64,000 bases of DNA from Minisyncoccota bacterium (GTDB lineage: Bacteria > Patescibacteriota > Minisyncoccia > Phycocordibacterales > JAQTLZ01). The position numbers and the translations under genes are program-made. This document shows positions 2,798 through 33,176 of this stretch, piece by piece (within the stretch, counting starts at the first letter, position 1; the number at the start of each line of letters is the position of its first letter). The stretch is taken from the NCBI GenBank assembly GCA_028714635.1, contig JAQTLZ010000001.1, positions 173,272 to 237,271 on the forward strand, written 5' to 3'. The notes under the pieces were generated by a model. It saw only the letters and a list, made by a program, of their open reading frames with translations. It was not told the DNA's origin and searched no databases.

Positions 2798-4489
2798 ATG
2801 AAAAAAATTATACAAAAAGACGAAGTTCTCATCTCGTCTCGGTGGGGGAAAGAACTCCATCGACTTGTCTCTGTGATCGCAGTTTCCTCACTTCTTTTAG
2901 GTGTTGTGGCTCCTTTGAGCGCGACAGCTGCTGCTGGTAACTACGAGATAACTCTTAGTTCGCAACAGGTTGGACCATTTTCTATAACTTTGAACGGTAC
3001 TGCAAGCGGTGATCCTATTGTCGGGAAATGTGATGCACAACATATTTCTGTTTTGAGTTGGGATGTTGCACATGGTCAGCTACCTACACCCGAAGATGTT
3101 ACTTTACAAAATTTTGGTTGCAATGATAAGGTTTTAGTAACTGATTGGGCAGCTTCTCATGTATATGCAAATGCCGGCACCTATACTATTCAGGTTAGAA
3201 TTTATCATGCAAACCCTACTGGTGCAGAAGGTTCGGATGTTGCAACGATCGATGTTCCAGTAATTATTCCTCCTGCGACTCTTACGGTTATTAAAGAGGT
3301 GGTTAACAGTACTCAATCAGCCGATGACTTCACTATAAATGTAACTGGTAATGGCGCTTCTCCCGCATCATTTCCAGGTGTTGAATATCCGGGGCAAGTT
3401 GTAAGTCTCCAGCCTGGTGATTACAGTGTTTCTGAAGCGAGTACTACGGACTACACCGCGTCTTTTTCAGCCGATTGTACTGGTTCAGTAGCGTCCGGAG
3501 ACAGTAAGACCTGCACGGTTACGAACACTTTTGTCCCTCCTCCGACCCCTACGCCCACTCCAACTCCTTCTCCAACGCCGACACCAAGTCCAACTCCGAC
3601 TCCAACTCCTTCTCCTACACCTACCCCCACACCGTCTCCAACCCCAACACCGAGCCCAACTCCCTCACCGACACCAGAACCTACTCCTTCGCCCACCCCA
3701 GAACCAACTCCAATACCAAGCGTGACGCCAACCCCAAGCCCCACGCCATCACCCACCCCGTCTCCAACGCCGGAACCAACACCATCACCGACACCAGAAC
3801 CTACTCCTTCCCCAACTCCACAAGCAACTCCAAGCCCAACTCCGGAAATAACTCCTAGTCCTACACCTACTCCAGATGGTGGCGGAGGGGAAACTCCAAC
3901 CCCGACTCCAGAAGCGACTCCGTCTCCAACACCCGAGCCTACTGCCTCTCCGACTCCTGAACCAACAGCCAGTCCAACTCCAGAACCAACTCCCTCTCCT
4001 ACTCCTAACAATGGCGGAGGCGAAAATCCTACACCAACTCCGACTCCTTCTTCCACGCCATCACCAACTCCGAAACCGCATCATTCAGGATCTTCTGGGG
4101 GACGTGTAGGTACGGGCGGAGGTGGTAGTGTGCTTGGAATATCCACTGGGCCTGGTGAAGTGCTTGGAGCTGAAGCTTGCAGTGTGTATCTCAAAACATA
4201 TATACATTATGGATGGAAAAATGATCCAGAAGATGTAAAAAGACTCCAGACATTGCTCAATAGCTATCTGAAAATCAATCTTCCAATTAGCGGTTTTTAT
4301 GGTCCGATGACGAGAGACGCCGTAAATAGACTCCAGGTTATGAATTGGCAAGAAGTGTTAGCTCCTTGGGTACCATTCGGCTTGCCAACGGCACATACTC
4401 CGACCGGATATGTTTACAAGACCACACAACGCTTCATCAATAATTATATTTGTCCGACTCTCAACCTTCCGATTCCGCAACTTCCGTAA
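2798..4489 (+). CDS. secreted cell-surface protein: Cna-B/prealbumin-like fold domain, long Pro-Thr linker, Gly-rich segment, C-terminal putative peptidoglycan-binding domain
   Basis: N-terminal hydrophobic signal; motif YSVSE...TCTVTNT typical of Cna-B-like domains; about 180 aa of (S/T/E)PTP repeats; C-terminus [21 protein letters not shown]...[15 protein letters not shown] resembles the PG_binding_1 domain. Confidence 0.55.
3535..4080 (+). repeat. tandem [13 protein letters not shown]-type coding repeat (Pro/Thr linker)
   Basis: Dozens of 6-15 nt units (ccaactcc, acgccgac, etc.) encoding PT/PS/PE repeats; the antisense GVG-repeat ORF 3451..4056 is an artefact of this repeat. Confidence 0.8.
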
Positions 4490-5560: not shown

Positions 5561-6775
5561 ATGGCAGAACAGAGAATCAAAAAAGAGCTCGGAGAGTGGA
5601 AGGATATTTCCATCGTGAATCTTATCGATTCGCTTGTTGAGTATGCTCATGCAAACCACGCATCGGATATTCACATTGATCCATCGGAGAAAAAAGTGCG
5701 AGTGCGGCTTCGTATTGACGGCGTTTTGGAAGAGCTTTGTGTATTTCCGAAAGACATTCATCCAGAAATTATTTCCCGAATCAAAATTCTGGCATCTTTG
5801 CGCACTGACGAGCATCAATCGCCCCAAGACGGACGTTTCCGGATTTCGCTTAAGTCGAAGTTCCCGATAGATGTGCGAGTTTCTATTGTTCCAACATTTT
5901 TCGGCGAGAATGCGGTGCTCCGGCTTCTGTCAGACAAAGCGGAAAGCATTTCTTTGGACATGCTTGGTTTAAACGAGAGAGATTACCAAAAACTTAAGAA
6001 AGCTGTGCAGAAATCTTCGGGAATGATCCTTGCTACCGGTCCGACCGGTTCTGGAAAGACCACGACGCTGTATACGATTTTGAAGATGCTCAATACCAAA
6101 GAAGTATCGATTATTACCATTGAAGATCCGATCGAATACGCGCTTGAGGGGATTGAACAGATCCAAGTAGACCCGCGAAGTTCGCTCACTTTTGCAAATG
6201 GTTTGCGCTCTATTTTGCGCCAAGATCCGAACATTATCATGGTAGGTGAGATCCGTGATACAGAAACTGCCGGCATTGCAGTCAACACCGCTCTCACAGG
6301 GCACTTGCTTCTCTCTACGCTCCATACAAATGATGCGGCGACAACGCTTCCGCGACTTCTTGATATGCACATTGAACCATTTTTGGTCGCTTCGACTGTC
6401 TCTGTCGCTATCGGCCAGCGGCTGGTGCGCACGCTCTGTCCGCATTGCAAGGTGCCGAAAACGCTTACAGAAGCGGAAAAGAAAACGCTCGAAGACATTT
6501 TTGCCGGAGTTCCGCTTCCGGAAAATCCCACGTTTTTTGAAGCGAAAGGCTGCGACGAATGCAGCACTGCAGGCTTTCGCGGACGAATCGGCCTTTACGA
6601 GGTCCTTGTCATGTCCCCAGCTATTCGAGAGGCAATATTGCGGAAGACTTCAGCCGCTGAAATAAAAACCATAGCTTTGCAAGAAGGCATGACTCCCATG
6701 GTTCGTGATGGTCTTGAAAAAGCCGCTCGCGGTCTCACTACCATTGAGGAAGTAATGCGTGTCGGCCATGAATAA
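5561..6775 (+). CDS. pilB: type IV pilus assembly ATPase PilB/GspE family
   Basis: Walker A GPTGSGKTTTLY, Asp box, His box (LLSTLHTNDA), tetracysteine CPHC...CDEC zinc motif; 404 aa. Confidence 0.85.
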   Translation: MAEQRIKKELGEWKDISIVNLIDSLVEYAHANHASDIHIDPSEKKVRVRLRIDGVLEELCVFPKDIHPEIISRIKILASLRTDEHQSPQDGRFRISLKSKFPIDVRVSIVPTFFGENAVLRLLSDKAESISLDMLGLNERDYQKLKKAVQKSSGMILATGPTGSGKTTTLYTILKMLNTKEVSIITIEDPIEYALEGIEQIQVDPRSSLTFANGLRSILRQDPNIIMVGEIRDTETAGIAVNTALTGHLLLSTLHTNDAATTLPRLLDMHIEPFLVASTVSVAIGQRLVRTLCPHCKVPKTLTEAEKKTLEDIFAGVPLPENPTFFEAKGCDECSTAGFRGRIGLYEVLVMSPAIREAILRKTSAAEIKTIALQEGMTPMVRDGLEKAARGLTTIEEVMRVGHE

Positions 6776-32872: not shown

Positions 32873-32955
32873 GCGTCGGTACCCAAGTGGTCAACGGGAG
32901 CAGACTGTAAATCTGTTGGCTTACGCCTTCGTTGGTTCGAATCCAACCCGACGCA
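32873..32955 (+). tRNA. tRNA-Tyr (anticodon GUA)
   Basis: GCGTCGGTACCCAAGTGGTCAACGGGAGCAGACTGTAAATCTGTTGGCTTACGCCTTCGTTGGTTCGAATCCAACCCGACGCA; class II long variable arm; anticodon loop CTGTAAA. Confidence 0.8.
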
Positions 32956-32962
32956 CAAATTA

Positions 32963-32986
32963 AATCTCCCCGAAAGGGGAGTTTTA
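32963..32986 (+). terminator. hairpin with T-run between tRNA-Tyr and structured element B
   Basis: ctcccc gaaa ggggag followed by tttt. Confidence 0.5.
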
Positions 32987-32990
32987 ATTT

Positions 32991-33136
32991 GTGGCCGAGC
33001 AAGACGCGGGGGGGGGGCGTCTTGCGTGGTTGGATTCGAAGCCTCGATAAGCAGATTTTTAAGTTCGTAATCGAACGTAAAAAATCTCCATCGAGGAAAC
33101 TGGTTCTGTAAGAACCGAAATTCCAACCCGACGCAC
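32991..33136 (+). ncRNA. unclassified conserved structured RNA element, copy B (paralog of 22416..22556)
   Basis: Hairpin aagacgc-G10-gcgtctt; stem cctcgat/atcgagg enclosing hairpin agatttttaagttcg taa tcgaacgtaaaaaatct (33042..33095); hairpin ggttc-tgtaa-gaacc; 3' tail aattccaacccgacgcacaa duplicates the 3' end of the adjacent tRNA-Tyr. Confidence 0.45.
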
Positions 33137-33142
33137 AATAAC

Positions 33143-33171
33143 TAAAAACTTCCGCAAAAGCGGAAGTTTTT
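33143..33171. terminator. bidirectional terminator
   Basis: cttccgc aaaa gcggaag flanked by aaaaa and ttttt. Confidence 0.7.
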
Positions 33172-33176
33172 AGTCT

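Follow-up and report, generated by a model that had tools for sequence, protein, structure and literature searches.

The 64,000-nucleotide stretch analyzed here (the window; Minisyncoccota bacterium, contig JAQTLZ010000001.1, positions 173,272 to 237,271) contains, directly downstream of the gene for tRNA-Tyr, a structured element (32991 to 33136) that is one copy of an undescribed family of non-coding cassettes of ~150 bases (roughly 140 to 180 bp), present in these scans only in Patescibacteria, members of the candidate phyla radiation (CPR) of the Paceibacteria type. In tRNA orientation, the order of parts is tRNA, spacer (often a terminator), anti-acceptor segment, hairpin 1, a 12-nt arm, a core and a tail. 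Our preferred reading, which we hold tentatively and rate as just short of an even call, is that the cassette is non-autonomous, enters a tRNA gene at the G53/T54 step and brings along a replacement 3' end, with a hairpin that would reconstitute the target duplex and an enzyme that would act in trans. Three full copies are found in the window, one each behind tRNA-Tyr, tRNA-Lys and tRNA-Leu(TAG) (Table 1), along with one truncated remnant, the latter common to the window, L006 and L009 (L numbers designate loci outside the window); about half of the six true tRNAs found in the window by ARAGORN and cmscan carry a structured cassette. Hairpin 1, stem P2, hairpin P3 and the tail, as listed for copy 1 in a preliminary description of this DNA, are all present where it placed them (the AU-rich hairpin enclosed by the P2 stem is imperfect), and the second copy it named was recovered on the minus strand (22417 to 22555), with compensatory changes relative to copy 1 in every helix.

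To define the family, a degenerate 24-base pattern that fits all three window copies was scanned over 185,579 species genomes, yielding 45 matches in 42 loci beyond those copies, or 48 instances in total. All 45 matches lie in Patescibacteria (CPR) metagenome-assembled genomes (MAGs), by label Taylorbacteria, Paceibacterota, Parcubacteria or 'Saccharibacteria' third-party annotation (TPA) bins. When the window was compared with shuffled versions of itself, the 35-nt core and the 24-base pattern, found two and three times, respectively, were expected 0.00 times. No copies were found in viral contigs, searched with two core patterns, or in phage and plasmid collections, searched with BLAST. The earlier statement that the element is unclassified stands: the Rfam scan proposed as a check matched only tRNAs, both at gathering thresholds (whole window and 12 loci) and, at the element, with a permissive E-value (451 nt and three loci), and full-text searching of the literature found no description of it. 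Covariance model R1 picked up further copies, as well as variant cores with the same tRNA-matched frame (L013, L015, L016, L020, L026, L030, L032 and L009), and the principle common to the core types is the tRNA-antisense frame, not the core. Variant cores were located in L015 (5477-5620), L009 (6114-6240 and 6571-6700), L020 (6880-6990), L013 (5921-6053), L016 (520-700 and 1700-2140), L030 (990-1160) and L026. One variant type has GAGTCGGGGTCGCG...GTGACC arms and a CAGTAG loop; another is without hairpin 1 and has a contiguous 21-nt antisense, and hybrid cores also occur.

The position of the copies relative to tRNA genes is strongly constrained. A tRNA on the same strand ends within 300 nt upstream in 39 of the 48 instances and within 135 nt before the pattern in 32, a tRNA on the opposite strand lies upstream in none, and the upstream tRNAs represent 20 anticodon classes. 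Adjacency to tRNA 3' ends, brought up in the preliminary description, thus held for these 39 instances but not for four true orphans (L003, L027, L040 and L042), which have a tRNA-like frame and no detectable tRNA upstream. For several of the instances without an upstream tRNA, either the contig breaks off within the region or the tRNA in front contains an intron (L011). In L011 (~3223-3430, oriented view), the element comes after a tRNA 3' exon (GGTCGTAGGTTCGAATCCTACCGCCGGAGCAC) that is itself preceded by a long structured insertion; the host is probably a group I intron-containing tRNA missed by ARAGORN (cf. bioRxiv 10.1101/2025.07.03.662931). The nearest published work found, a preprint on tRNA introns in Patescibacteria, treats group I introns located at position 35/36, which are different from the element. 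As for the orphans, the elements of L003 (3250-3860 in the minus-strand view), L027 (1-143) and L040 (1-144) are preceded by a shared non-coding stretch with a GCGCGTACTCGCGC hairpin, for which neither Rfam nor ARAGORN gave a match. In L003, the tail (...CCCGGCATCTCCAC) is similar to the 3' end of a tmRNA, and the stretch upstream of the three elements may encode a tmRNA of a divergent CPR type or some other RNA.

A part of the element overlooked in the preliminary description is the antisense arm that follows hairpin 1. In all three window copies, hairpin 1 and P2 are separated by 12 to 15 nt that form an exact reverse complement to the upstream tRNA, covering its T-loop and the 3' strand of its T-stem. 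Against the cognate tRNA, 11.5 of the 12 arm positions form Watson-Crick pairs on average; all 12 do so in 21 of 31 copies, as they do for copy 1 against tRNA-Tyr, and the T-loop part matches at 7 of 7 positions in each of the 31, across six T-loop variants. The longest exact shared stretch has a median length of 12 nt for cognate versus 5 nt for non-cognate tRNAs. Upstream of hairpin 1, most copies have a further antisense stretch, the anti-acceptor segment, which is directed against the acceptor 3' strand plus the discriminator and matches at 7/7 positions in 13 copies and at 6/7 or better in 19 of 31, that is, in 61% of cognate cases versus 13% of non-cognate comparisons. The antisense always stops at T54, where the next base is G or A and never the C that would complement G53 (column 8 of core alignment A3), and at its other end it often runs past the discriminator into the palindromic spacer, the tip of which is either a terminator hairpin or the loop motif GAGCGNAGCGA between A- and T-tracts. 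The tip motif recurs, as GAGCGNAGCGA / ACGAACGCAGTGA, in copies that have no terminator (L004, L005, L020, L023, L029, L030, L031, L036 and others).

Because non-palindromic T-loops (TTCGATC and TTCAAGT) are matched as their reverse complement, the arm is antisense rather than a sense T-arm, and for the same reason a sense T-arm with TTCGAA as a target-site duplication was rejected. Partial duplication of the tRNA gene, which would underlie the earlier suggestion of a tRNA-derived element, was likewise discarded, since at tRNA G.U positions the base in the element is the Watson-Crick partner of the 3' strand (31 of 35 scored positions), the base of the tRNA 5' strand itself occurring at 1 of 35; these counts are inflated by an acceptor register that is off by one in three tRNAs, and the ~15 cleanly informative positions essentially all agree. 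The G3.U70 pair of tRNA-Ala, for example, has become A3 in the element. An antisense that is perfectly Watson-Crick complementary and ends sharply, at T54 on one side and past the discriminator, into the palindromic trailer, on the other, could also have been made by a polymerase or reverse transcriptase (RT) that copied the tRNA 3' region before the product was integrated, as in the regeneration of retroviral primer-binding sites. Self-priming at the paired A-tract/U-tract end of a terminated precursor, with run-off at the 5' end at T54, would provide such a route, and the duplication does end at the tRNA 3' end, taking in CCA where it is encoded (L039). We nevertheless consider a retro-type origin very unlikely: there is no RT gene near any copy, the antisense tracks the genomic trailer instead of the mature CCA end, and hairpin 1 splits the antisense exactly between positions 65 and 66, unlike what simple copying would leave.

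Comparison with relatives revealed the inserted nature of the element. When metagenomes were scanned for genes of tRNA-Lys and tRNA-Leu(TAG) no more than 30 nt apart, the result was six empty loci (L051 to L056), in which tRNA-Lys, a 9- to 29-nt spacer and tRNA-Leu follow one another without an element. The spacer of these empty sites (e.g., AGTGAGTAAAATAAAT) is homologous to the sequence after the tail in L009 and in the window, which means that the tail and the spacer correspond to the ancestral tRNA 3' end and its spacer, and that the block from T54 to P3 is what was inserted. Likewise, a block of ~216 nt after tRNA-Leu(TAA) in L009 is absent from both the window and L006. With the empty sites of relatives in view, we interpret the tail as the displaced original tRNA 3' end; in copy 1, its final 15 nt repeat the 3' end of tRNA-Tyr (32942-32956) without a difference. 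Units also accumulate in arrays, either as identical tandems (L021, 147 nt; L035, 140 nt) or as heterologous tandems (L013, L015, L016 and L026), with truncated older pieces lying distally. The expectation that the tail matches the neighboring tRNA was borne out in part: matches to the tRNA 3' end reach 24 nt, but in several copies with an intact arm and core (copy 2/L006, L009, L024 and L032) the tail has decayed badly. Where it has, the arm still matches the tRNA 12/12, and between copy 3 in the window and its counterpart in L009, 12 of 24 tail positions are identical, compared to 73 of 77 in the core. In the minimum free energy (MFE) fold of the tRNA-Tyr plus element RNA, the tail is paired with tRNA positions 1 to 53, the unit lies between G53 and T54, and the segment from T54 to the 3' end (S) pairs with the antisense. 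A search for an empty tRNA-Tyr site by way of the neighboring cupin gene showed that synteny was lost in the homologues. Among the options left open by the preliminary description, a miniature tRNA-targeting integrative element with a footprint is therefore the one that we favor, given the empty sites in relatives, the colinearity of the tail with the ancestral tRNA 3' end and spacer, the tandem and heterologous arrays, and the decay of the tail.

Other blocks were seen near the same tRNAs. Two close relatives, L006 (~2165-2350) and L009 (~6330-6495), have ~190 nt of structured non-coding sequence between tRNA-Leu(TAA) and tRNA-Lys; this block is absent from the window, where a 58-nt spacer (22654-22711) is found instead. 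In L010 (5072-5827), tRNA-Val is separated from its element by an open reading frame (ORF) of 251 amino acids, for which no informative Pfam match was obtained. An additional copy of the tRNA 3' end, in a decayed state, comes after the ORF, an arrangement that suggests a separate insertion, with a gene, at this tRNA.

Duplicated tRNA 3' ends are the classic scar of integrase-mediated islands, and the elements could thus be debris, either decayed attachment (att) remnants of such islands, for which the gene-bearing insertion and the extra decayed copy in L010 would speak, or a plain, functionless intergenic repeat kept palindromic by template switching, given that near-pure Watson-Crick palindromes can be maintained by quasipalindrome correction. 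Of all the explanations that we weighed, this is the least probable. Its near-invariant core recurs in many genomes, asymmetric internal loops and junctions persist right beside a decaying tail, the antisense arm is without a counterpart in ordinary att scars, and the same architecture recurs at 20 tRNA species.

To examine the core itself, 41 family members were aligned (alignment A3), and covariation was compared with that in 500 shuffles and in slid controls. The proposed structure is 94.9% paired, with 15 pairs changed on both sides, and its covariation score of 0.364 was reached by none of the 500 shuffles (0.093) and lies well outside the slid controls (0.04 to 0.08); RNAalifold agrees. 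The claim that the structure is under selection, made earlier from two copies, is thereby placed on much broader ground. The core consists of a three-way junction (P2 and P3) with two conserved purine-rich internal loops and the invariant junction GGTACTG. Nearly invariant in sequence are, besides this junction, P2a (CCCGATTG/CAATCGGG), the AU helix and the P3 loop; hairpin 1, P2c and P3, by contrast, keep their pairing with free sequence. The hairpin 1 stem measures 8 to 9 bp across 44 copies and is nearly all Watson-Crick, and P3 shows double changes in four of its five pairs and is 96.6% paired. RNA folds of two window copies gave z scores of -3.6 and -5.4. Folded as single-stranded DNA (ssDNA), the region from T54 to P3 reached -12 (copy 1) and -14 (copy 3) and gave hairpin 1, P2, P3 and one long hairpin, H0, which is made of tRNA positions 54 to 74, the spacer and the antisense; hairpin 1 is a branch on it, and the copy 1 spacer forms its tip. 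The ssDNA form may be the active one.

The P3 loop is a GUA triloop with a covarying closing pair (U-A or C-G). In the preliminary description it was said to look like the anticodon loop of tRNA-Tyr; a reading as an anticodon mimic is one that we reject, since the loop is constant beside 20 tRNA species, and the likeness, given the covarying closing pair, is a coincidence. The hairpin 1 loop is GGG or GGGG in other copies and a G9 homopolymer in copy 1 (33008-33016), giving, together with the first stem base, ten consecutive Gs (33008-33017); this loop could be prone to slippage or an assembly artifact.

Strong core covariation combined with invariant unpaired nucleotides is typical of functional RNAs, and the element might accordingly be a stable non-coding RNA (ncRNA) in a tRNA-like frame, in which the anti-acceptor and anti-T-stem segments pair with the tail as an acceptor/T minihelix and hairpin 1 occupies the site of the D and anticodon arms. 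An RNA of ~150 to 170 nt would be freed by RNase P together with 3'-end enzymes, and its conserved P2/P3 core would bind protein or RNA. Such an RNA would fit the constant co-orientation with tRNAs and the occasional location in tRNA operons with no terminator in between (copy 2 and L035), and T-stem pairing between arm and tail is kept at 4/5 or better in ~23 of 31 copies. Orphans retain the self-complementary frame (L042), a 2-nt tail insertion (see below) favors a three-way junction over an extended helix, and compensatory differences between copies of one genome give the impression that each is maintained individually. On balance, however, we regard this explanation as unlikely, although it is the most serious of the competing ones. 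The tail evolves in a neutral-like manner, and many copies stand directly behind an intrinsic terminator and have no recognizable promoter; copy 1, for one, is flanked by the terminator of tRNA-Tyr and by the end of a convergently oriented gene for a VWA-domain protein. G.U pairs are depleted (3/369 in hairpin 1 and 1/205 in P3; 1.6% overall versus 3.6% for stems of tRNAs at these loci, P = 0.003), and with a G.U:A.C ratio of 19:13 there is no strand asymmetry and thus no RNA-strand signature. tRNA identity elements have been lost (G3.U70 to A3-U70), and neither the inclusion of the T-loop in the antisense nor the fact that the arm tracks the upstream tRNA and not the tail would be explained. 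The stand-alone ncRNA considered in the preliminary description was, for these reasons of context, composition and tail decay, not borne out.

That the arm follows the upstream tRNA rather than the tail, that a terminator often sits at the tip of H0 and that S pairs with the antisense in the MFE structure of tRNA-Tyr plus element could instead point to a cis-acting element of the tRNA precursor. In read-through RNA, the antisense would pair with the tRNA 3' half to form H0 and so control 3' maturation, termination or the decay of unterminated precursors, possibly through RNase III-type cleavage. We deem this improbable: only some tRNAs have an element and relatives manage without one, no account is given of the tail, the orphans, the tandem arrays or the conserved 85-nt core, and without a terminator in between, a sequence antisense to the 3' half of the tRNA would do harm instead of good. 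The terminators at 32966-32981, 33141-33175 and 22288-22305 are symmetric (A-tract, GC hairpin, T-tract) and should work in both directions, and the palindromes of the first and the last of these run outward into the tRNA 3' end and its antisense.

In the insertion reading, a unit would consist of S (the replacement copy of positions 54 to 74), the spacer or terminator, the antisense of S split by hairpin 1, and the core. As a single strand, S and the antisense would fold into H0, a base-for-base copy of the target tRNA gene duplex, upon which a recombinase or nuclease encoded elsewhere in the genome would exchange strands at G53|T54; the original 3' end, shifted downstream as the tail, would then decay. 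With the unit between G53 and T54, the tRNA gene stays intact, as it uses the S of the element and often its terminator, and only cognate insertions survive, as a non-cognate S would wreck the tRNA. The order observed (tRNA positions 1 to 53, S, spacer, antisense, core, old positions 54 to 74) is the remnant that a single-strand exchange at G53|T54 would be expected to leave, provided that it took place between the tRNA gene and a small element with a hairpin copy of the target as its attachment site; exchange of this kind is known from integron attC sites and the CTX-phi attP hairpin. The insertion reading thus explains the perfect antisense, the sharp T54 boundary, the restored tRNA and terminator, the decaying tail, the arrays and the presence of cognate insertions only.

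Several observations weigh against it. The enzyme is purely hypothetical, as no recombinase, transposase, integrase or RT recurs near the elements: all-against-all clustering of 410 neighboring ORFs gave housekeeping synteny only. Neither an excised form nor very recent identical copies at different tRNAs were seen, and copies within one genome differ in a compensatory manner in hairpin 1, P3 and P2c, a pattern that selection acting on each copy over a long time would explain better than recent bursts; current mobility is presumed. The core looks like RNA and is more elaborate than known folded att sites. How a cassette acquires S and antisense for a new tRNA species is left without explanation. 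Filled and empty genes for tRNA-Lys and tRNA-Leu(TAA) differ on the T-stem 5' strand as well, so that a crossover at 53|54 alone would be insufficient. A 2-nt insertion after position 59 recurs in six tails (copy 1, L001, L002, L019, L024 and L028), which suggests that the tail may matter for folding. Finally, the four orphans stand without a host tRNA.

A more speculative possibility, which we consider doubtful, is that the split antisense, with 7 to 9 nt directed at the acceptor 3' strand and 12 nt at the T-stem/T-loop, on the scaffold of hairpin 1 and beside the conserved core, is a guide. As RNA or ssDNA, the cassette would pair with the tRNA gene or with the tRNA and direct a CPR enzyme to cut and join at G53|T54, with the guide being rewritten at each insertion; alternatively, it would be a highly base-paired circular replicon of ~150 nt parked in tRNA genes.

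The neighbors of the elements are housekeeping genes, including those for IF-2, RbfA, a methyltransferase, alanine racemase, LepA and ClpB, and the unit itself contains no genes. A gene resembling that of a CCA-adding enzyme (by sequence, a poly(A) polymerase head and an HD domain) was observed beside element-bearing tRNA-Arg/tRNA-Gly loci of four genomes (L020, L023, L029 and L032); its recurrence is probably a matter of synteny.

Table 1. Coordinates of the element copies, their host tRNA genes and their parts in the window (CM, covariance model)
Feature	Position	Strand	Basis or remark
tRNA-Tyr(GTA), host gene of copy 1	32873-32955	+	ARAGORN; Rfam tRNA, 57.9 bits
Segment S (T-loop to 3' end) of tRNA-Tyr	32936-32956	+	
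Copy 1 spacer: A-tract, GC hairpin (32966-32981), T-tract; bidirectional terminator	32957-32998	+	Terminator scan
Copy 1 hairpin 1: GCAAGACGC / G9 loop / GCGTCTTGC, branch on H0	32999-33025	+	
Copy 1 antisense arm GGTTGGATTCGAA	33028-33040	+	Exact reverse complement of tRNA-Tyr positions 54-66
Copy 1 P2: stem CCTCGAT/ATCGAGG, internal loop, AU helix, purine-rich internal loop, apical hairpin	33042-33096	+	Folds, covariation
Copy 1 junction AAACT plus P3 hairpin GGTTC-TGTAA-GAACC (33102-33116)	33097-33116	+	Fold, covariation
Copy 1 tail GAAATTCCAACCCGACGCAC	33117-33136	+	20 nt; sense tRNA-Tyr T-loop remainder through C74
tRNA-Lys(CTT), host gene of copy 2	22581-22653	-	ARAGORN, Rfam; S reaches 22580
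Copy 2 with spacer	22417-22580	-	CM, 87.3 bits; between tRNA-Lys(CTT) and tRNA-Leu(TAG)
Copy 2 without spacer	22417-22555	-	
Copy 2 anti-acceptor segment GCGCCCA	22549-22555	-	
Copy 2 hairpin 1	22527-22547	-	
Copy 2 arm GAAGGGATCGAA	22513-22524	-	
Copy 2 P2	22457-22511	-	
Copy 2 P3	22437-22451	-	
Copy 2 tail	22417-22436	-	Decayed
tRNA-Leu(TAG), host gene of copy 3	22317-22398	-	ARAGORN, Rfam; S reaches 22316
Copy 3	22140-22316	-	CM, 90.8 bits; more diverged; after tRNA-Leu(TAG) and its terminator
Copy 3 without spacer and terminator	22140-22268	-	
Copy 3 terminator	22288-22305	-	
Copy 3 hairpin 1	22247-22268	-	
Copy 3 arm GGGAGAGGACTTGAA	22232-22246	-	
Copy 3 P2	22178-22230	-	
Copy 3 P3	22159-22172	-	
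Copy 3 tail	22140-22158	-	
Truncated older element, distal to copy 3	22094-22122	-	Junction GTACCG; P3-like GGC-GTA-GCC; 12-nt exact piece of tRNA-Leu(TAG) 3' end

CPR bacteria have tiny genomes and few recognized mobile elements. If mobile, the cassettes would be the smallest known tRNA-targeting integrative elements and the first with an attachment site that is a hairpin copy of the target, which would imply an uncharacterized recombination activity in Patescibacteria; the exact G53|T54 boundary provides a concrete biochemical hypothesis. Were the core to act as RNA, it would represent a widespread new class of structured RNA with a tRNA-derived processing frame, and were the split antisense to act as a guide, the outcome would be a categorically new, nucleic-acid-guided and self-retargeting insertion system with tRNA genes as landing pads. 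On a practical note, the pseudo-tRNA 3' ends and long palindromes of the elements can mislead tRNA annotation, island prediction and MAG assembly.

The element was compared with known RNAs and mobile elements. It has no cloverleaf, and nothing was called on it by ARAGORN or cmscan, even at E ≤ 10, which speaks against a tRNA or tRNA pseudogene. ARAGORN -m called no tmRNA in the window or in L001 to L042, nor was there an Rfam match to one. Among small self-cleaving ribozymes (hammerhead, twister, pistol, hatchet and HDV-like), the best matches were RAGATH-1-hammerhead, at 16.9 bits (gathering threshold, 56.3), and drz-agam-2-2, at 10.2 bits, and the junctions in A3 (UUCGAAG, GGUACUG and GAAAU) do not fit a hammerhead core. 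Readings as a hammerhead, C/D-box, K-turn, group II domain V or T-box were dropped, as the invariant residues do not fit the consensus cores (judged by eye and with Rfam); a T-box or other cis-regulatory leader is further at odds with the location downstream of tRNAs and the lack of an Rfam match. With tRNA-like RNAs (the tRNA-like domain of tmRNA, the bacterial Y RNA YrlA, PMC4201824, and RNase P substrates of the mascRNA type, PMC8457004), the element shares acceptor/T-stem-like helices that can be drawn with a junction hairpin and would make plausible substrates for RNase P and 3'-end enzymes, but it has no T-loop fold or Rfam match, its frame differs per copy, and its tail is not conserved.

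Primer-binding sites in retroviruses and in long terminal repeat (LTR) retrotransposons are similar in being exact complements, ~18 to 20 nt long, of the 3' part of a specific tRNA into the T-loop; the element, in contrast, is bacterial, has no RT or LTRs, and carries a hairpin-split complement without CCA that lies beside its own tRNA gene. MITEs (miniature transposable elements with inverted repeats; those of bacteria are reviewed in PMC10969869) and palindromic repeats (REP/BIME, Correia, Rickettsia RPE and IS200/IS605-derived PATEs) are likewise small, non-coding, multicopy, structured and intergenic. Unlike these, the element has inverted segments that are copied from the local tRNA, a duplicated segment of ~21 nt and no family-specific terminal inverted repeats, is strictly tRNA adjacent and oriented, and occurs within one genome in copies that differ compensatorily.

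The likeness to integrative elements aimed at the T-loop sublocation of tRNA genes (tyrosine-integrase islands, prophages, tycheposons, bioRxiv 10.1101/2020.12.28.424599, and cis-mobilizable tandem elements) is much closer. Here, too, insertion takes place in the 3' part of the tRNA gene, a replacement 3' end is supplied, the displaced 3' end remains as a direct repeat, tandem accretion occurs, and relatives differ in presence or absence. For the element, we found both the direct repeat with a restored tRNA and presence or absence among relatives (L051 to L056, and L009 versus the window and L006). On the other hand, it measures only ~150 bp and carries no integrase or other gene, no recurrent recombinase was found among its neighbors, and the family occupies at least 20 tRNA species, with each copy matched to its own tRNA. 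We know of no tRNA-targeting island with an exact antisense copy of its target, nor of one with a conserved folded core.

A second close likeness is to recombination sites that are active as folded single strands, namely, integron attC and the forked hairpin of CTX-phi attP(+), the latter being used by XerCD. Shared features are structure kept over sequence in some helices (in the element, H0, hairpin 1 and P3 vary in sequence and keep their pairing), imperfect palindromes, extrahelical features, a hairpin that mimics a duplex recombination site, and cassette-like tandem arrays. Differing from attC, the element is without GTTRRRY/RYYYAAC boxes, an IntI/attI context and ORF cargo, and the base of its hairpin is TTCRAN/NTYGAA, which stems from the tRNA T-loop; differing from both, it targets a tRNA gene, copies its target exactly and has an additional three-way-junction core. 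In summary, while the element fails the defining test of each, its behavior comes closest to that of two known systems, the tRNA-targeting integrative elements and the folded single-strand att sites.

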